DNA of 15,132 nucleotides. Origin: a virus. Lineage: Duplodnaviria > Heunggongvirae > Uroviricota > Caudoviricetes. Made by a program: the position numbers and the translations under genes. Under the pieces are notes generated by a model. It had not been told where the DNA came from. It did no database searches and saw only the letters and a list, made by a program, of their open reading frames with translations. Numbering within the stretch: position 1 is the stretch's first letter; the number at the start of each line of letters is the position of its first letter. Positions 6,518 through 15,132 of this stretch are shown one piece after another. The stretch lies in IMG/VR virus record IMGVR_UViG_2627853771_000002. One strand, 5' to 3'.

Positions 6518-6781
6518 ATGAGAAGTAGCCTTGAAGCAATCAGTGAAGCCTGCCGCATTGTTGGGGGACAAGCCGCTTTGTCAAGGAATCTAGGCATCTC
6601 ATCACCAACAGTGAATCAATGGACAACGGGCATTAGGCAAATACCTGCGGAACGATGTCCTGCGATTGAGAAAGCTACTGGTGGTGCTGTCACCTGCGAA
6701 GAGCTTCGTCCTGACATTGACTGGGCCTATTTAAGAGGTGCAGCAATGCGAAAGCTTAATGTCACTGCATCAAATTTGTAA
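6518..6781 (+). CDS. YdaS/Cro-like HTH regulator
   Basis: 87 aa from the ATG at 6518 (AGGAA seven nt upstream). Motifs GGQAALSRNLGISSPTVNQW...IPAERCPAIEKATGGAVTCEELRPD match my recollection of the YdaS/Cro-type family. The ORF track starts at a TTG at 6491. Confidence 0.7.
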   Translation: MRSSLEAISEACRIVGGQAALSRNLGISSPTVNQWTTGIRQIPAERCPAIEKATGGAVTCEELRPDIDWAYLRGAAMRKLNVTASNL

Positions 6782-8138: not shown

Positions 8139-8981
8139 ATGAAACTGACTTTACCATTTCCACCGAGCGTAAATAGTTACTGGCGCGCCCCGAGCAAGGG
8201 ACCGCTGAAAGGCAGGCATCTGGTAAGCGAGACAGGGCGCAAGTTCCAGCAGGCAGCGAGAGCGGCGATTATTGAGCAACTGCGGGCCGTTCCCCGGCCA
8301 TCCTCAGATCTGGCCGAGGTTCACATAAACGTTGTTGAGGGCGCGGGGCTTGAGCTTGATCCTGATGATGATTCACAGGTTCTTAAAGCGATTGGTGGCG
8401 GTCGCCTGCTTAATATTGTCACCTTTACTAAGTCAGGGACTTACACTCCAACTAAAGGGACGAAAAGAGTGCGGGTGAAAGTTTGGGGAGCGGGGGGAGG
8501 TGGCCAGAATGCTCCAGTTAGTGTGGGCGCATCTGGAGGTTGTGCTGGTGGATTTTCGGAAGGGTTATTTAATATTTCTGATAACGAAACTATATCTGTG
8601 ACGATAGGTACTGGTGGCAGTGCTGTTGCTGCTGGTGTCTCGTCTAAAGGCGGGAATGGTGGTGATACAAGGTTCGGGAGTTTAATCTCAGCTACTGGAG
8701 GGAGTGGTGGCGGGGCTACAGTTCCTGCTGGAGGTATCGGAAGTGGCGGGAACATTTTAAATATTACTGGCGAAATATCTCAAGGTGGTCTGTATTATGG
8801 TTCTGATGCTTTTATTGGCGGGGCTGGAGGATCTGCATTTTCATCAACGGGTGGCAATGGCCACTTCGGTAGTTCTGGCGATGATGGCGGTTTCCCCGGC
8901 TCAGGTGGTGCCGGGGGGAATGGTAACTATTCATCAGGAAAAGGAGCGAATGGTTTAGTTTACCTTGAAGAGTTTTCCTGA
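8139..8981 (+). CDS. RusA-like N-terminal region fused in frame to a glycine-rich, fibre-like C-terminal region
   Basis: N-terminus MKLTLPFPPSVNSYWR... resembles the RusA resolvase N-terminus (ITLPWPPSNNRYYR), and ...GGGRLLNIVTFT resembles the RusA C-terminus. From about aa 110 the protein is a GGxGG-rich tract of about 170 aa. ATG at 8139 follows AAGGGGG. Confidence 0.5.
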   Translation: MKLTLPFPPSVNSYWRAPSKGPLKGRHLVSETGRKFQQAARAAIIEQLRAVPRPSSDLAEVHINVVEGAGLELDPDDDSQVLKAIGGGRLLNIVTFTKSGTYTPTKGTKRVRVKVWGAGGGGQNAPVSVGASGGCAGGFSEGLFNISDNETISVTIGTGGSAVAAGVSSKGGNGGDTRFGSLISATGGSGGGATVPAGGIGSGGNILNITGEISQGGLYYGSDAFIGGAGGSAFSSTGGNGHFGSSGDDGGFPGSGGAGGNGNYSSGKGANGLVYLEEFS

Positions 8982-10051
8982 TTATTTTTGCTTTGAGCGT
9001 CCGCCCTTATTTTTGCTCTAATTTTAATTAGTGGCTTGTCTATTAATATTACACAAACGATCCCAAGTGCAATTGATATTGGGTAGCCTAATAAAAAGAT
9101 GGATAAGCCACGATTTTCACCACCAATAGCAAGCCATGCTAGAAATCCACCAAAATATTGACAAAGAAAAATTGGATAGGCCAGGTCACCAAACCACTTG
9201 AGTATTTTCTCAAGATGTATGTTTGTCTTTATTTTTAATAATACCAGGGTTGTAAACAATGCTATTACATTATTGGTGTAGTAAAGTATTATGTTGTACT
9301 GACCTAATGGATTAATTGTATATAAATGCCAATTGGTAATAAAAATCCCGATGCAAATAAATGTTATTAAAAAAGCTTTGTGTGGAGAAAGATACATAGC
9401 TTTGAACTTTCTATGGGCAAAATAACCCAGAGAACCCATGCTAAAAGGAAGTGTTGCAGCAAGGAATGGGAAATACGCCATATCAAAAGAATGGTGTACT
9501 ACATATACGTAAGCATGATAAAGCAGTGAAAGCAGAATCGACGTAATGGCTGTAAATTTATTTCGGGCTATGAAAAGCCACAATAAAAAATAACATGTTA
9601 TCTCAACACCCACTGACCATGATGATGTGACTATTCTGAATCTATTACCATCAATAGCAAAGTGATAAATGGATGAAAAGGCACCGAATGGATTTGCTAC
9701 AGCATTATCAGAAAGGAAAGCCCAGGGGAAGATTAAGAGGTTTCCTAATAAATCTCCAGGTAAGAAATTGCCTGTCCAGTTTGAGTGGAATTCCTTTGCG
9801 GATGGAATTAATTTTATAATAAGAAAGCCCATGACGAGAAAAAATATATATGCCGGGAATAACCTCAGTATTCTATTTTTCCAAAACATAGAGAAGTTGA
9901 ACTTGTATGTTTCATGCAAAATGTATGTTATTAAAAAACCACTAATAACATAGAAGCAATTCACTGCAAAGTTGCCAAGTGCAGGTATGCGAGCCGTTAA
10001 GTGAAAAGCAATGACGCACGATGCCAAAAAAAACCTTATTAGGCCAAGCAT
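8960..10051 (-). CDS. Acyltransferase-3 family integral membrane protein (O-antigen O-acetyltransferase-like, Oac/OafA type)
   Basis: 363-aa very hydrophobic ORF with motifs typical of the family (RFFLASCVIAFH, FYVISGFLITY); strongly AT-rich relative to its flanks. Its 3' end overlaps the convergent glycine-rich ORF by about 22 bp. Confidence 0.75.
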   Translation of the reverse strand: MLGLIRFFLASCVIAFHLTARIPALGNFAVNCFYVISGFLITYILHETYKFNFSMFWKNRILRLFPAYIFFLVMGFLIIKLIPSAKEFHSNWTGNFLPGDLLGNLLIFPWAFLSDNAVANPFGAFSSIYHFAIDGNRFRIVTSSWSVGVEITCYFLLWLFIARNKFTAITSILLSLLYHAYVYVVHHSFDMAYFPFLAATLPFSMGSLGYFAHRKFKAMYLSPHKAFLITFICIGIFITNWHLYTINPLGQYNIILYYTNNVIALFTTLVLLKIKTNIHLEKILKWFGDLAYPIFLCQYFGGFLAWLAIGGENRGLSIFLLGYPISIALGIVCVILIDKPLIKIRAKIRADAQSKNNQENSSR

Positions 10052-10314: not shown

Positions 10315-10415
10315 TCTCTTATTTAACCGTTTAAACACGTAAGGCGATGTTAGCCCTGAAGGGGCGGGGCGTCAATCTTAATTGCTTCATTGAAAAGATG
10401 AAGACAGGAACAGGT

Positions 10416-12410
10416 ATGGACAAAAGATATAATACCGGCAATCCAAGACCTTCAAATAGCATGAAGGATCTGAATGATAACGCCCTGGCGTACGATGATT
10501 TCCTGAACAGCGAAAGCGATACTTTTATAGATCGTTTTGGTAACGCCCAGGATACGATAATTGGGGCTACTAAAAAAATGGCAGCTGCTACCGACGCTGT
10601 TATTGATGAAGCCCGCCAAAACCTGATCCCTCTCAGCCGGCAGTACATGACGCTGGCGGCGGCGCAGGCGGATATTGCGAATATTCCGGCAGGTTCAACA
10701 ACCTATGTCCGCAGTCAGGACGGAAGCTCTCTGGCCGATGAGTATATCAACCTCGCTGGAACGCTGCAGCCAACCGGACGGCGGATGGTTCGTGACGACT
10801 ACGCATACCAGGTATCGCCAGACAGCGTGACCCTGGCAGCATATGATCCGGAGACTTCCCGCGTGGCTCCATTTTTAAATACAAGCGGCAGATTAATTCA
10901 AATCGGTCCTGACGGAAAATATTACGAACTTTTAACCCAACAAGAATCCGAACTCTATGCGCTGGGCCGGGAGGGTTCTATACCGCAGTTTATTGGCGGT
11001 GAAAAAGTGTGGCGGATGACGGTTGATTCAACCACAAACCAGATCGTTGAAGCTTATACGGTTGGTGGGAAGCACTGGATTTACTCAGACGGTGGCCTGG
11101 TAGCTGTTAATAACGGAAATGGCGGTGGTGGTGGCGACGATGATGCCAACCAGCTCCCTGAGTATGGACTTCATTTGTCAGGGTCTACTGTGTACCCCTA
11201 CTCAGAGACAGTGCCTGTATGTTTTATCTTTGTGACTGCTGGGCAATCCAACGCTCGAGGATATTGTCCTGACGCCGATCAAACCATTGTCGCAGCAACG
11301 CCGATATATCCTGATAACGCTTTCATGCTCAGCGGCGGGGTTAGGCGTACAGGGACACGCAGCACTACTCTGGTGCCACTGGTTGAGGCAGTAAGTGGGA
11401 CAGATAAAGAAACGGCCGCAAGCGGCCTCGCGAACACCTTCATTCGCGATATGGCTGCAGCTACCGGAATCATGCCGCGCACGCTATCAATCGTATGTGC
11501 GCAGTCTGGTCAGGCTTACGAGTACCAGAAACGGGGTAACCAGGTATATCAGTATCTGCTCGATTCAATCGAAGACTGCGTAACGGCCTGTAAAGCACGC
11601 GGCTGGCTGCCGATTGTTCTCTGCGTTGACTGGATGCAGGGAGAGTCCGACGAGGACTGGTCAGGATTACGAGAAGGAATGTATGAATCACGGATGAGGC
11701 AGTACCAGAGACAAATCACCAGCGACATCATCGCAAGAACGGGTCAAAACGAACCGCCGATTATCGCCATTACCCAGCTGGGGTATGTCAATGACGGGCA
11801 TGGTGCATTTACAGGCCAGTACGCGCGACTGGCGTCGACGCGATTGCACGGAAAAGAGCAATTCAGGCTGGTCAATAGTTTGTACCAGTACGATTTTATT
11901 TCAGACGGTCTGCACTTGACGTGTGCGGGCCAGAACCGGCGCGGAGCAGCTGTGGCGAGAGCGCTTCTCCAGGAGTGGTTTACGAGCGGCTGGTCAGGGA
12001 TGGTTCCGACCAGTTTCGTGTGGAACTCACCCACGCAGATACAAATCAATGTCCCAGCGTATACGAACCTGGTGCTGGACACGACTACGATCAACACCTC
12101 CGGTCTGGCCAATTACGGCTTTAGCTACACGGATGAGACTGGTGCTCCACCTGCTATATCGAGCATCGCGATCAGCTCGGACGGCAAGGGCGTGCTGATT
12201 AACCTGGCGACCGCCCCCTCTGGACGTTTTGGGCGCGTTTCCTATGCGACAGCAGAAAACCCACTTCAGAGCGGCGCATCTGTAAAACCTTCCGGGCGGA
12301 CTCTTGGTGCAAGAGGGTGTGTTCGATCTTCCGCTGGAATCATATGGGTGTATGACACATCCGTGACTCTTTACGACTGGCTCCCCGCTTTTCGTATTAA
12401 CGTTTTCTGA
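10416..12410 (+). CDS. Tail-fibre/tailspike-like protein with an internal SGNH/SASA-type carbohydrate esterase domain
   Basis: Esterase block motifs in order: GQSN (VTAGQSNARGY, nt about 11241-11252), QGESD (DWMQGESDED, nt about 11631-11651) and DxxH (SDGLHLT, nt about 11904-11918). A Gly/Asp linker (NGNGGGGGDDD) precedes the domain. Start taken as the ATG at 10416 (AGGAACAGG upstream); the maximal ORF begins at 10347. Confidence 0.55.
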   Translation: MDKRYNTGNPRPSNSMKDLNDNALAYDDFLNSESDTFIDRFGNAQDTIIGATKKMAAATDAVIDEARQNLIPLSRQYMTLAAAQADIANIPAGSTTYVRSQDGSSLADEYINLAGTLQPTGRRMVRDDYAYQVSPDSVTLAAYDPETSRVAPFLNTSGRLIQIGPDGKYYELLTQQESELYALGREGSIPQFIGGEKVWRMTVDSTTNQIVEAYTVGGKHWIYSDGGLVAVNNGNGGGGGDDDANQLPEYGLHLSGSTVYPYSETVPVCFIFVTAGQSNARGYCPDADQTIVAATPIYPDNAFMLSGGVRRTGTRSTTLVPLVEAVSGTDKETAASGLANTFIRDMAAATGIMPRTLSIVCAQSGQAYEYQKRGNQVYQYLLDSIEDCVTACKARGWLPIVLCVDWMQGESDEDWSGLREGMYESRMRQYQRQITSDIIARTGQNEPPIIAITQLGYVNDGHGAFTGQYARLASTRLHGKEQFRLVNSLYQYDFISDGLHLTCAGQNRRGAAVARALLQEWFTSGWSGMVPTSFVWNSPTQIQINVPAYTNLVLDTTTINTSGLANYGFSYTDETGAPPAISSIAISSDGKGVLINLATAPSGRFGRVSYATAENPLQSGASVKPSGRTLGARGCVRSSAGIIWVYDTSVTLYDWLPAFRINVF

Positions 12411-12419
12411 GGATAAAAA

Positions 12420-13220
12420 ATGAGACTGATTTACACACTAACTGGACTGAATAACCCCTTACTCCCTGTGTACTCACAAACAGCGGCAGAGAAAGCGATC
12501 TCAGAACTATCCCCATCAGTATGGACACCAGTGAAGACAGAGTTTCTAAAAATGGGGTCTGGTGCAAAAGTAGTAGCTATCTCTAACCGATTAGATGGCG
12601 GACTTTTCAAGTCACTGGAGACCCTCGAGCCATCCACAAAGCTGAATGGTTCTGTTTTGCAGGGGCTTAATTTCTCCGGTGCATCCGGCATGGCTGGTGA
12701 TACGGCGGTGGTTATGGACGCAAACATCAATACTTTTGCATTCATCTATCAGCTGCCAGGTGGGGCGCTTCCGGCTACGCCACAGGACAGAGCGGTTATC
12801 GCAACCCAGGAAAGCACACCTCATGGCGTCGGCATTCGTACAACGTCAGCAGGTTCATTCCCGATTTTTCTGAATGGAGGGATCGAGGCCGATCTGGCAT
12901 TTACTCCTAACAATATAGGGCAATCTTTATTCTGCGCTGTAGTTATGTGCTCTAACAAGGCTGCTGGATCCTATGCAATTGCATACCAGCGGTCAGATCA
13001 GTCTGCAGTGACCAGCCGACAAGTGACGGGCTATACAATCCCAGCGTATAGCCCGTCTCAAAAAATGAGTATTGGCGGAGCAGGCAATGGTTCAGTGTCT
13101 CCGTTAACATCCGTTTTGTCAGAATGTTTGGTTTTCCCCGGCAAATATGCATATGGGACCAGCACACTGGATGTCATCCTGGCATATCTGATGGAGAGGA
13201 TTGGAAAAATCACGGCCTAG
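12420..13220 (+). CDS. Hypothetical 266-aa protein co-transcribed with the fibre/esterase gene (possible fibre partner or assembly protein)
   Basis: ATG at 12420 lies 6 nt after GAGGA and 9 bp after the upstream stop. No recognisable motif. Confidence 0.5.
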   Translation: MRLIYTLTGLNNPLLPVYSQTAAEKAISELSPSVWTPVKTEFLKMGSGAKVVAISNRLDGGLFKSLETLEPSTKLNGSVLQGLNFSGASGMAGDTAVVMDANINTFAFIYQLPGGALPATPQDRAVIATQESTPHGVGIRTTSAGSFPIFLNGGIEADLAFTPNNIGQSLFCAVVMCSNKAAGSYAIAYQRSDQSAVTSRQVTGYTIPAYSPSQKMSIGGAGNGSVSPLTSVLSECLVFPGKYAYGTSTLDVILAYLMERIGKITA

Positions 13221-13254
13221 AATTTGCCGAATGCATCCGAGTCGGTCCGCAGCG

Positions 13255-13413
13255 ATGGAGCAGGAGAGAGTCGGCGGCCGCCGCCGGATAATGACTGAAG
13301 AAGTGGTGGAGCGGTGCCGCAGAATGCTGGAGAACGGCGCTACCCGGCAGCAGGTGGCTGATGTGACAGGCGTGGACGTGAAAACAATCTACAAGTACCT
13401 CCCGGCGACTTGA
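13255..13413 (+). pseudogene. 3' fragment of a serine DNA invertase gene (Hin/Gin/Pin-type C-terminal HTH only)
   Basis: ...GGRRRIMTEEVVERCRRMLENGATRQQVADVTGVDVKTIYKYLPAT-stop resembles the C-terminal HTH of Hin/Gin/Pin invertases; no catalytic N-terminal domain precedes it, because the upstream sequence is the end of the 266-aa gene. Confidence 0.55.
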
Positions 13414-13490
13414 AGGCAAAGATTTCACTACTTTTCCTGATATGTTACGTTTGGCTTAATCAATTCATTCAGCTTTGAAAACAGTTTGGT

Positions 13491-13913
13491 TTGTTCGTGA
13501 ACGGTAAGAAAACAATAAGTTTTGAGCAATTTTTAACTATTAACAGCAATCTTGTTTCCATCTCAGATACATGGGCTGACTTGTGGGCGTTAATTTTTCA
13601 CACGGGTTTAAGCGCTGGAAGGCTGCTGAGTATTCGATATGATGATATTGATGGTGACTTGATACTGATACGAAAACAGGGTCACCTGAAGGAGCTACGT
13701 GTTAAATCAACCCCTCCAGTGGAGGGGATCATTGCTCGTAGAAGAGAACGCTATCCAGAAGATGTTTTTTTATTTCAGAGCCATTCTAACCGTGTGAAGT
13801 ACCAATGCCGGCCGGTCACTATAATTGCTTTCAACGCCGCTTTACGTCGCGCCGCTAGATCATTACCAGACGTTAACGTAAGCAGTAGTAGCGCGAGAAA
13901 CATACCGGACTAA
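13491..13913 (+). pseudogene. FimB/FimE-like small tyrosine recombinase remnant, C-terminally truncated and degenerate
   Basis: Box-I-like region LWALIFHTGLSAGRLLSIRYDDIDGDLILIRKQG parallels FimB/FimE, but the catalytic Arg position is Ser and the His/Arg/Tyr C-terminal motifs are absent. No ATG start (TTG/GTG only). Confidence 0.4.
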
Positions 13914-13931
13914 CCGCCTGTCCAGTCGCGT

Positions 13932-13985
13932 GTGGCCGATGTGACAGGCGTGGGGGTGAAGACTATTTACAAATATTTGCCAGTA
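13932..13985 (+). repeat. Second diverged copy of the invertase 3'-end segment
   Basis: gtggccgatgtgacaggcgtgggggtgaagactatttacaaatatttgccagta encodes VADVTGVGVKTIYKYLPV; most differences from copy 1 are synonymous. In frame with ORF 13491-13913 but separated from it by a TAA. Confidence 0.5.
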
Positions 13986-14003
13986 CAATACGGCGATAAA
14001 AAC

Positions 14004-14029
14004 CCCCTTGAGCAGGCACACTCAAGGGG
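14004..14029 (-). terminator. Hairpin with a T-run on the minus strand; possible terminator for leftward transcription
   Basis: CCCCTTGAG (14004-14012), 8-nt loop, CTCAAGGGG (14021-14029); the preceding plus-strand AAAAA is a T-run after the hairpin on the minus strand. Confidence 0.3.
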
Positions 14030-14140
14030 AAAATACTACATAACATCATTGCTGTGTGCGTCTTTGCGCTCGTCTATCTTCCAAGAATATGCCTAAAGCT
14101 TCCAGATATTTCTGGTCTGAGCTGTTACATCATGGAGTAG

Positions 14141-14198
14141 GTGCCGATGTGATAGGTTAAGAGCGAAGATGATCTGTAAGTACCTTCCGACGTCGAGG
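14141..14198 (+). repeat. Third, more degenerate copy of the invertase 3'-end segment
   Basis: gtgccgatgtgataggttaagagcgaagatgatctgtaagtaccttccgacgtcgagg aligns with copy 1 (gtggctgatgtgacaggc...aaaacaatctacaagtacctcccggcgact). Confidence 0.35.
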
Positions 14199-14533
14199 GG
14201 CAATGACCATGAATTTGGGTCTATACCATCCCAATTCATATATTCTTTGTAAGTCTATGAAATATAGAGCAAAGTATTCTGTTCGAAATGAACCATATGG
14301 AATAGCCAAAGGCTAAAATGCCCAGAGTAAAAACAACAATCAGCAAGTCCGTCTGTGACATCTTATATCCATTTTGCAGTAGCAGGTTTTGAGAAAAGAT
14401 AGTTCATAGTTGGCACATAGACAACATAATCACTAAGTGAAACCAATATCAGAGGCTAAAAGGTGACTGGTTTCCTCCTCAGTGTTCCTGATTGATAGCT
14501 GGAACCTGTATTGATCAGATCTCTTAATGAATC

Positions 14534-14553
14534 TACTGTATATAAAAACAGTA
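14534..14553 (+). promoter_or_regulatory. LexA (SOS) box overlapping a promoter
   Basis: TACTGTATATAAAAACAGTA matches the E. coli consensus TACTG(TA)5CAGTA at 18 of 20 positions (CTGT-N8-ACAG intact). A possible -35 TTGATC lies at 14510-14515. Confidence 0.75.
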
Positions 14554-14571
14554 TTTTCGGGAGGTGAAGTT

Positions 14572-14730
14572 ATGCCGCGAAACTCAGATATCGAAATAGC
14601 CTGGCGTCAGGCAATTGTCATTGAGCCTAATGGCCGTCGCACCGTGACAACGTCCGGTTTTATCCGGGAACTCGCAAAAGTTAACTGGATATGGTCACCG
14701 CGCCAGGCTAACCAGTGGATAGAGCACTGA
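14572..14730 (+). CDS. Small hypothetical protein (52 aa) immediately downstream of the LexA box
   Basis: ATG at 14572 lies 7 nt after GGGAGG; translation MPRNSDIEIAWRQAIVIEPNGRRTVTTSGFIRELAKVNWIWSPRQANQWIEH; stop 9 bp before the UmuD-like start. No family recognised. Confidence 0.45.
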   Translation: MPRNSDIEIAWRQAIVIEPNGRRTVTTSGFIRELAKVNWIWSPRQANQWIEH

Positions 14731-14739
14731 CATTCCGGG

Positions 14740-15132
14740 ATGTCTCAACGCAGGAAGGCGATGAGCTCACGTTCCAGTTATACAACCCAAACGGAGGGCT
14801 ATAACGTGGGATTTCCGTCGCCAGCTGCTGACTATGTTGAACGGCGTCTGACCGTTGATTCACTCTGCGGTACCGGCCCCAATACTCGGATAGTACAAAC
14901 AGAAACCGGCTATGCCGTAGTGGATTGCTTCGTAAAACCAAAGCAAGGAGATACCGTTTTAATTCAATACGGCGGCGGCACTGATTTTGCAAAAATTATG
15001 GGCCGGGCATTTATTACACGAGACGGTGAAGCGTTGGAAGGTGAGGCCCTGGATGATGTTACAGTTGTCGGGGTAGTGACATTCGTTATCAATCGGATAG
15101 GGAAGGATGATGATGATTATCCAGTAATATGA
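14740..15132 (+). CDS. UmuD-like (peptidase S24-like) protein, apparently lacking the catalytic serine and the Cys/Ala-Gly cleavage site
   Basis: GFPSPAADYVERR matches the conserved UmuD/MucA/RumA segment and the C-terminus (DDVTVVGVVTFVI) matches UmuD (LDVFGVVIHVV). Where those proteins have GDSM/GSSM, this one has GYAV, and VG replaces CG/AG before FPSPAADY. An alternative start is the ATG at 14761 (AGGAAGG upstream). The stop TGA at 15130-15132 overlaps an ATG at 15129. Confidence 0.7.
   Translation: MSQRRKAMSSRSSYTTQTEGYNVGFPSPAADYVERRLTVDSLCGTGPNTRIVQTETGYAVVDCFVKPKQGDTVLIQYGGGTDFAKIMGRAFITRDGEALEGEALDDVTVVGVVTFVINRIGKDDDDYPVI

Follow-up and report, generated by a model that had tools for sequence, protein, structure and literature searches.

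Jackson et al. are said to have described C-terminal displacement and arrays of orphan 3′ gene ends in 2009 for Rhs, contact-dependent inhibition (CDI) and type VI secretion system (T6SS) effector loci. Homology-facilitated illegitimate joining has been proposed as the origin of orphan 3′ ends that lie in strings at Rhs and T6SS effector loci (Kirchberger et al., 2017; PMC5361080), and the locus described here has the same topology. It is located in a DNA stretch of 15,132 nucleotides (nt) from the Caudoviricetes virus record IMGVR_UViG_2627853771_000002 (hereafter the window), in which the 3′ end of a DNA-invertase gene of the Gin/Hin type is present three times in direct orientation and the first two copies enclose an open reading frame (ORF) of 140 codons, named ORF140. 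The copies are probably scars left where modules were inserted one after another immediately downstream of a tail-fibre invertase gene of the Gin type. In the E. coli HS chromosome, to which the window is 100% identical, it represents the right arm of a prophage adjoining yodB and a hybrid tRNA, and the locus lies in the slot between the tail-fibre genes and the prophage end.

The repeated unit comprises the last ~20 codons of the invertase gene and is found on the plus strand at 13348-13410 (copy 1), about 13918-14011 (copy 2) and about 14133-14198 (copy 3). Three direct copies had been noticed at these places in a preliminary description made from the sequence, and repeat search, 14-mer count and profile E-values agree with it. 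The repeat search resulted in 84% identity across 44 nt for copy 1 (13354-13397) against copy 2 (13932-13975), and placed copy 3 in a 28-nt repeat family (14165-14192, 75%) as well as in a 14-nt family with members at 13357, 13935 and 14143 (14143-14156 in copy 3). The 14-mer GCYGATGTGAYAGG occurs three times in the window, always within the copies, where 0.03 occurrences are expected. A profile made from the last 60 nt of intact invertase genes, which was used with nhmmer for the detection of copies across all loci, matched copies 1, 2 and 3 with E-values of 1.2e-15, 2.6e-16 and 3.9e-5, respectively. Copies 1 and 2 share the identical 16-nt core GATGTGACAGGCGTGG and differ across 18 codons at eight synonymous and two non-synonymous positions. 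These mainly synonymous differences, together with an intact parent of the copy 2 type in the E. coli strains MRSN346595 and 3426, bear out the earlier proposal that both derive from distinct homologous genes. Copy 3 is degraded in the window by one stop codon and one 1-nt deletion; its homology is nevertheless secure, because the better preserved syntenic copy 3 of relatives reads VADVIGVGVKTIYKYFPAG up to a stop codon. The sequence comparison thus supports the view that all three are homologous invertase 3′ ends from distinct genes.

For the comparison, 122 loci were gathered via homologues of ORF140 and DNA matches; these relative loci are given as L-numbers (e.g., L003, L017 and L022 for the better preserved copy 3). 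Copy 3 spans from about codon 157/164 to the gene end. Copy 2 reaches from about codon 155/161 to a former stop at 14009-14011, with clear identity from 13932/13935 and a tblastn match to invertase codons 161-186; in L121 the remnant extends back to ATRQQV. Due to a 1-nt change in an A-run, the reading frame of copy 2 varies among the relatives, in which it ends with PVQCGDKKSP at the original invertase stop, the window equivalent of which is 14009-14011. An ORF of 54 amino acids (aa) that starts in copy 2 (13932-14096) was rejected as a gene, as its frame hinges on the same 1-nt difference. The features of the locus are:

13228-13413, plus strand: 5′-truncated remnant of a serine invertase gene of the Gin/Hin type (HTH_7, tblastn, RefSeq pseudogene, nhmmer)
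13414-13490, plus strand: spacer of 77 nt from the invertase stop to ORF140, kept along with the module
13491-13913, plus strand: ORF140 (phrog_19751, integrase phrog_1, predicted fold)
13918-14011, plus strand: copy 2, displaced 3′ end of an invertase gene of the MRSN346595 type (tblastn, nhmmer, identity to L011/L012)
13995-14128, strand unassigned: segment X, native downstream flank of invertase genes (terminator scan, L011/L012, K. michiganensis-type loci)
14133-14198, plus strand: copy 3, apparently older, degraded remnant of an invertase 3′ end (nhmmer, repeat families, better kept relatives)
14199-14520, strand unassigned: segment Y, non-coding flank before an SOS-regulated umuD-like module (identity to L011)

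The arrangement downstream of ORF140 is explained by the prophages of the E. coli strains MRSN346595 and 3426 (L011/L012). Both carry opposed tail-fibre genes and an intact invertase gene of 189 codons, whose own 3′ end is of the copy 2 type (ending in KTIYKNLPVQCGDKKSP and a stop codon) and is followed by X, copy 3, Y and umuDC; ORF140 is absent. L011 is 94.6% identical to window positions 13935-14520, and segment Y is common to L011, L012 and L016 in the alignment. The comparison with intact relatives, which the preliminary description had proposed, therefore reveals copy 2 as a live invertase end. Segment X also directly follows an intact invertase gene in the K. michiganensis-type loci L006, L018 and L020, in the order invertase-X-ORF138. 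Because copy 2 and X form the live invertase end and its flank in L011/L012, and X is the native flank in the K. michiganensis-type loci, the two are native parts of a resident invertase gene, its end and its flank, that have been displaced. Copy 3 would be a gene end displaced earlier, which is still found even where the system is otherwise intact.

A terminator scan of segment X detected a minus-strand intrinsic terminator at 14030-14003. X could be a mere shared terminator or a small minus-strand transcript; it matched no Rfam family, nor was any match found in an Rfam scan of window positions 13000-15132. As a portable unit of ~120 nt, X was also observed by itself in E. coli SX45, where it separates convergent tail-fibre genes, and close to the tail-fibre genes of the lytic Proteus phage Mydo (76% identity).

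Copy 1 is present as described earlier, but it is not an isolated copy of 57 nt. It forms the terminal part of a 186-nt invertase remnant (13228-13413) containing codons ~122-183 and the stop, i.e., the helix-turn-helix (HTH) domain only. The remnant matched Pfam HTH_7 (E 1.9e-9), the PHROG DNA invertase family (E 2.6e-11) and, by tblastn, codons 122-180 of an intact invertase (80% identity, E 7e-25), and is annotated in RefSeq as a "helix-turn-helix domain-containing protein" pseudogene missing its N-terminus. The N-terminal resolvase catalytic domain with the serine nucleophile was not detected in the window (no Resolvase match), from which codons 1-121 are absent. As suggested in the preliminary description, the crossover site of 26 bp was searched for: clear sites are present in relatives, and the window has none, even when three mismatches are allowed. 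Without catalytic domain and crossover site, the inversion system of the HS prophage is dead.

In the relatives, the invertase matches residues 1-182 of Mu Gin (PDB 4m6f, E 1e-71). Among the 86 loci with an ORF140 of at least 90% identity, the invertase gene is intact in 32, and in 31 of these a gix-like crossover core lies just upstream; in the other 54 the gene is left-truncated, with 23 different first codons. The crossover sites of the relatives were found with a gix-core pattern, whereas a generic inverted-repeat search missed them. L011, L006, L018, L005 and L010 carry inverted 26-bp gix-like sites (TTCGCNCAAAC..GTTTGNGCGAA) around 4-5.5 kb of opposed tail-fibre genes. These sites are located at 891-916 and 6440-6465 in L011, where a third related motif (6540-6565) was observed about 40 nt inside the invertase coding region, at the place where the enhancers of Gin and Hin lie. 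Since 32 of the 86 loci keep an intact invertase gene, 31 with a crossover core, copies 2 and 3 coexist with apparently working inversion systems. The repeated decay of an inversion system proposed earlier therefore stands for the upstream invertase gene, which is dead in HS, is truncated at many codons in relatives and was presumably struck repeatedly and independently through replacement of the tail-fibre module. It does not stand for copies 2 and 3, which are no signs of decay in this lineage because they are common to at least 86 loci including those with an intact invertase.

In total, the layout copy 1-ORF140-copy 2-X-copy 3 was found in at least 86 prophage loci of Klebsiella, E. coli and Raoultella. 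Three same-strand copies are present in 86 of the 122 loci and four copies in 4, and all detected copies (300/300) are on the strand of ORF140. Window positions 13247-14156 are about 95% identical in Klebsiella and Escherichia phages despite differing left and right flanks, and the 77-nt spacer is unchanged in L022 and shows about 95% identity in phage relatives. The borders of homology fall into the copies: in L015 the homology to the window stops inside copy 2 and then runs into a convergent integrase gene, while copy 3 has three different right halves, each of which is continuous with its own downstream flank. The positions of the breakpoints inside the copies differ. The body of ORF140 decreases to 76% aa identity, whereas its last 40 nt, copy 2 and X stay ~98% identical, which indicates recombination at these patches. 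Other invertase remnants in the collection start at codons 118, 125, 141, 166 and 170. As remnants start at many codons and copy 1 is truncated at different codons as well, there is no universal junction.

The gene between copies 1 and 2, ORF140 (13491-13913, plus strand, with an alternative GTG start possible at 13497), resulted in no match to Pfam, NCBIfam (E up to 10) or PADLOC. It matched phrog_19751, a family of unknown function (E 5e-46), and the PHROG integrase family phrog_1 (E 2.4e-8). A sequence-profile search against the PDB gave only insignificant matches, with integrases at E 0.4-0.9, and the homology was established through PHROGs, the full-length relatives and the predicted fold. 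An AlphaFold2 (AF2) model with a predicted local distance difference test (pLDDT) score of 82.7 was compared by Foldseek, and the top 50 PDB matches were all tyrosine recombinases (query TM-score, TMq, up to 0.77), led by lambda Int, XerH, XerA and Cre. ORF140 belongs to the tyrosine-recombinase superfamily, and a non-recombinase identity, which would have spoken against the preliminary description, was not found.

At the 90% cluster level, 161 homologues of ORF140 were identified in Klebsiella, Raoultella, E. coli, Superficieibacter and Kluyvera. All complete members have a length of 132-146 aa at identities down to ~40%, and the family ends at the same point throughout, a few residues past a conserved SSxSAR motif, with or without copy 2. 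An exhaustive profile search splits this strong clade of 130-150 aa from weaker matches of 182-202 aa, which are complete small tyrosine recombinases with Arg I (ALRISD), HxxR (THSMRK), His (LNHSS) and Tyr (MRYIG) and which match PF00589 at E 1e-18 to 2e-12. FimB and FimE are similar in size to the small tyrosine recombinases (about 185 aa), and the preliminary description had named ORF140 FimB/FimE-like. The superfamily is right, while ORF140 is no closer to FimB/FimE than to Xer: for the full-length relatives, the best NCBIfam models are XerA/XerC/XerD, and the FimB/FimE models (NF007370/NF007371) gave E 1e-4 to 1e-5 and 20-23 bits against cut-offs of 221-222. The alignment also verified the reported loss of the catalytic Arg I and the C-terminal motifs, and further revealed that the His of HxxR is gone. 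Arg I and the HxxR His are each replaced by Ser, and the protein ends 3-5 residues past Arg II without the C-terminal segment bearing His/Trp and the Tyr nucleophile. Arg II is kept in ORF140 and lost in more distant truncated members.

The earlier classification of ORF140 as degenerate, part of a recombinase "graveyard", has to be abandoned in view of a conserved family of 132-146 aa with a constant end and evidence of selection. Of the 13 pairs with unsaturated dS, 12 have a ratio of non-synonymous to synonymous substitution rates (dN/dS) of 0.10-0.22; the closest pair, window against L022, has 0.39. The gene is always located in the accessory region between tail fibre and prophage end, often without a nearby invertase gene or fragment. 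Homologues without flanking copies and invertase were found in L020, L021, L105 and L109-L116, and copy-free homologues belong to K. michiganensis, K. spallanzanii, Kluyvera and Superficieibacter loci. Judged by sequence, ORF140 is a conserved, selected, C-terminally truncated and apparently non-catalytic derivative of a tyrosine-recombinase domain. It has most likely retained the ability to bind DNA or protein, and any role in recombination, by binding or regulation, is a guess. A 175-aa protein of Franconibacter helveticus (L118 3971-4498) is full-length, with Arg I changed to Lys, the HxxR His to Gln and the Tyr apparently gone, and suggests that catalytic death came before the C-terminal truncation; its gene adjoins umuD-like and gtrA/gtrB-like genes (L118 3971-4498; L117).

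It was confirmed that ORF140 is in frame with copy 2 across a single stop in the window. This relation is probably not meaningful, because relatives carry one to two further stops and the C-terminus of the family is the same with or without copy 2. Read-through of ORF140 into copy 2 as a fusion protein was rejected on the same grounds, and the sole read-through variant noted (P0015, 161 aa) runs into a frameshifted remnant. An origin of ORF140 as a host gene fragment from K. michiganensis was likewise set aside, as the gene is located inside phage genomes and occurs in several genera. The annotation of the family is inconsistent, being either "hypothetical" or "site-specific integrase".

The arrangement may have arisen in the following way. 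Incoming phage DNA, consisting of an invertase 3′ part and new downstream cargo, would have paired by homology within the conserved invertase gene, and its far end would have been joined illegitimately within the 3′ part of the resident gene (homology-facilitated illegitimate recombination). The end of the resident gene would have been pushed downstream as a dead fragment, i.e., by C-terminal displacement. The first step would have led to the state invertase(copy 3)-Y, the second to invertase(copy 2)-X-copy 3-Y, which is still present in E. coli MRSN346595, and the third to invertase(copy 1)-ORF140-copy 2-X-copy 3-Y, a state that many prophages of Klebsiella and E. coli in which the invertase is intact still show. 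The last insertion would have brought ORF140 as its cargo. When the tail-fibre module was later replaced in the HS lineage, invertase codons 1-121 would have been lost together with the invertible segment and both crossover sites, and the short conserved remnants may later have acted as homology patches for the exchange of downstream flanks. We infer the order of events and the recombination mechanism from the compared loci, and the illegitimate joining in particular from the topology.

Two points weigh against this history. Among the collected loci, no relative with an intact invertase of the copy 3 type directly before Y was found, and the first step is a presumed one. Furthermore, copy 2 (about codon 155, clearest in L121) and copy 3 (about codon 157) start within about two codons of each other, which for two independent illegitimate joints would be a coincidence of a few per cent, possibly aided if short remnants survive preferentially. 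Codons 155-160 were compared by eye with the crossover consensus for a pseudo-gix site that could have caused the shared boundary, and no likeness was seen.

The shared start is also one of the observations that would be expected if cassettes had been inserted site-specifically at an att-like site in the invertase 3′ end, the copies being attL/attR-type duplications of tandem insertions. Small elements, the first with a tyrosine recombinase ancestral to ORF140, would then have brought a replacement gene end, as tRNA-targeting islands do. A tyrosine-recombinase-derived gene between direct repeats with the identical 16-nt core GATGTGACAGGCGTGG, the 14-mer common to all three copies and the direct orientation of every copy fit this explanation, which is nonetheless quite improbable: ORF140 has lost Arg I, the HxxR His, the second His and the Tyr nucleophile, its truncated form is constant across a family diverged to ~40% identity, and its members often occur without flanking copies. 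Moreover, there is no constant crossover core, with breakpoints in the copies varying and remnants starting at many codons, and the segment from copy 2 to copy 3 is a native invertase flank. The direct orientation would equally result from a tandem multimer, in which unequal crossing-over or co-integration of related phages produced units of invertase-X-ORF that were then trimmed by internal deletions. Given the order invertase-X-ORF138 of the K. michiganensis type, three partly deleted units could result in the observed order; yet at least three independent deletions would be needed, no intermediate with two full units was found among the 122 loci, and the many synonymous differences and different invertase alleles fit acquisition from different phages better, so that this origin is unlikely.

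That the copies are kept for a function, e.g., because ORF140 or the invertase HTH binds to them or because they act in regulation or as RNA, would agree with the widespread layout and the purifying selection on ORF140. The stop and frameshift that show copy 3 decaying in the window, the differing frame of copy 2 among relatives (1-nt A-run change), the lack of an Rfam match and the common occurrence of ORF140 homologues without copies leave such a function a slender chance, and the loci are highly similar because the module as a whole has a recent common ancestor. A bolder version, in which ORF140 is a domesticated domain controlling recombination, the invertase-end fragments are its sites of action and the locus is a cassette-capture hot spot, is very improbable; if it were true, ORF140 could act by binding to sites of recombination, or it could poison or steer an integrase or invertase, be it that of its own phage or of a competitor. 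For a recent duplication in place or a similarity by chance within this genome, nothing speaks beyond the repeat itself, and the probability is practically negligible, considering eight synonymous differences in 18 codons between copies 1 and 2, the strong profile E-values, a 14-mer found three times against 0.03 expected, and the recurrence of the same copies at no fewer than 86 loci from several genera. No support was found for a repetitive element bearing invertase ends that would be mobile, an alternative that the preliminary description had raised in the form of an unrecognised repetitive element. Serial insertion with displacement of the resident gene end is thus retained as the probable origin of the copies.

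The left part of the window contains baseplate and tail genes, followed by a minus-strand acyltransferase gene and a tail-fibre gene with an esterase domain (10347-12410). After the latter follow an ORF of 266 aa, the region of the invertase ends, a small ORF preceded by an SOS box and a umuD-like gene. The acyltransferase gene belongs to the acyltransferase-3 family (8960-10051, minus strand) and lies opposite the tail-fibre gene, whose domain is of the sialate-O-acetylesterase (SASA) type. It is plausible that, in the module that took the place of the invertible segment, modification of surface glycans is paired with an activity that destroys receptors. Downstream of segment Y, a LexA-box-like perfect palindrome TACTGTATATAAAAACAGTA (CTGT-N8-ACAG, 14534-14553) and a GGAGG ribosome-binding site precede the small ORF (14572-14730; phrog_3893, E 9e-22), which is followed by the umuD-like ORF (14740-15132; phrog_3469, E 7e-49). 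In RefSeq, part of the region 14534-15132 is annotated as a frameshifted DNA polymerase V pseudogene, and relatives carry a complete umuDC pair there.

In relatives, the cargo of the accessory slot includes umuDC, a retron-type reverse transcriptase, a TIR-domain protein, acyltransferases and an integrase. In phage vB_EcoS-716R3, a retron-type reverse transcriptase gene is located directly upstream of the truncated invertase gene, and a K. pneumoniae locus encodes an RVT_1 protein and an AAA_15/SMC_N ATPase, while the TIR-domain protein belongs to another locus. Such defence-like cargo was located at L004 4173-5657, L017 6311-7798 and 9805-10417, and L019 3667-4395. On a K. michiganensis chromosome (L008 2194-5645), the ORF140 homologue is preceded not by the invertase/tail-fibre region but by a beta-lactamase gene, which sits between two insertion sequence (IS)-type transposase copies (rve/DDE_Tnp_IS240).

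For genome annotation, it follows that the invertase-end fragments should not be annotated as genes. They also do not imply a dead inversion system, as a third of the related loci keep the system intact. The locus is a clear, datable example of how the accessory region of a temperate phage is assembled with a conserved housekeeping gene end as recombination anchor. Of more interest than the repeats is the widespread prophage family phrog_19751 (132-146 aa), the members of which are shortened, inactive tyrosine-recombinase domains on which purifying selection acts. Neither the layout nor the ORF140 family was found described in literature searches.

Compared with the systems described so far, the intact relatives resemble the Gin/Hin/Cin/Pin systems of Mu, P1, e14 and Salmonella, with a serine invertase of 183-189 aa and 26-bp gix-like inverted sites, whereas the window retains the C-terminal HTH part alone and no crossover site, so that the system is extinct here. 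ORF140 aligns to the first ~135 residues of small tyrosine recombinases that consist of the catalytic domain only (about 185 aa, Xer-like), shares their D(V/I)YLFQSHSNR motif and is predicted to adopt the catalytic-domain fold; unlike them, it bears Ser at the positions of Arg I and of the HxxR His and has neither His/Trp nor Tyr. As at the mosaic boundaries of temperate phages (the moron or accessory region beside attR), interchangeable cargo lies between the tail fibres and the prophage end, but the boundary is marked here by repeated, recognisable fragments of one gene instead of anonymous junctions.

The closest likeness is to the arrays at Rhs, CDI and T6SS loci. These also contain same-strand dead 3′ fragments of older alleles, interleaved with cargo and differing at synonymous sites, and for both a homologous anchor and an illegitimate joint are proposed, with later homologous exchange at the fragments. 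At the locus described here, one fragment, copy 2, is still the live gene end in an extant intermediate (L011/L012). The differences concern the anchor, which is a phage DNA-invertase gene and not a toxin gene, the displaced ends, which encode a conserved HTH helix and not variable toxin tips, and the cargo, which consists of a dead recombinase-domain gene and a non-coding flank, without an immunity gene that would explain retention. Each acquisition would leave a displaced gene end, by the same logic as at the Rhs, CDI and T6SS toxin loci and here at a DNA-invertase gene. The repeats are in this respect mostly ordinary: recombination scars of this kind are known, and what is new is the kind of gene at which they lie.

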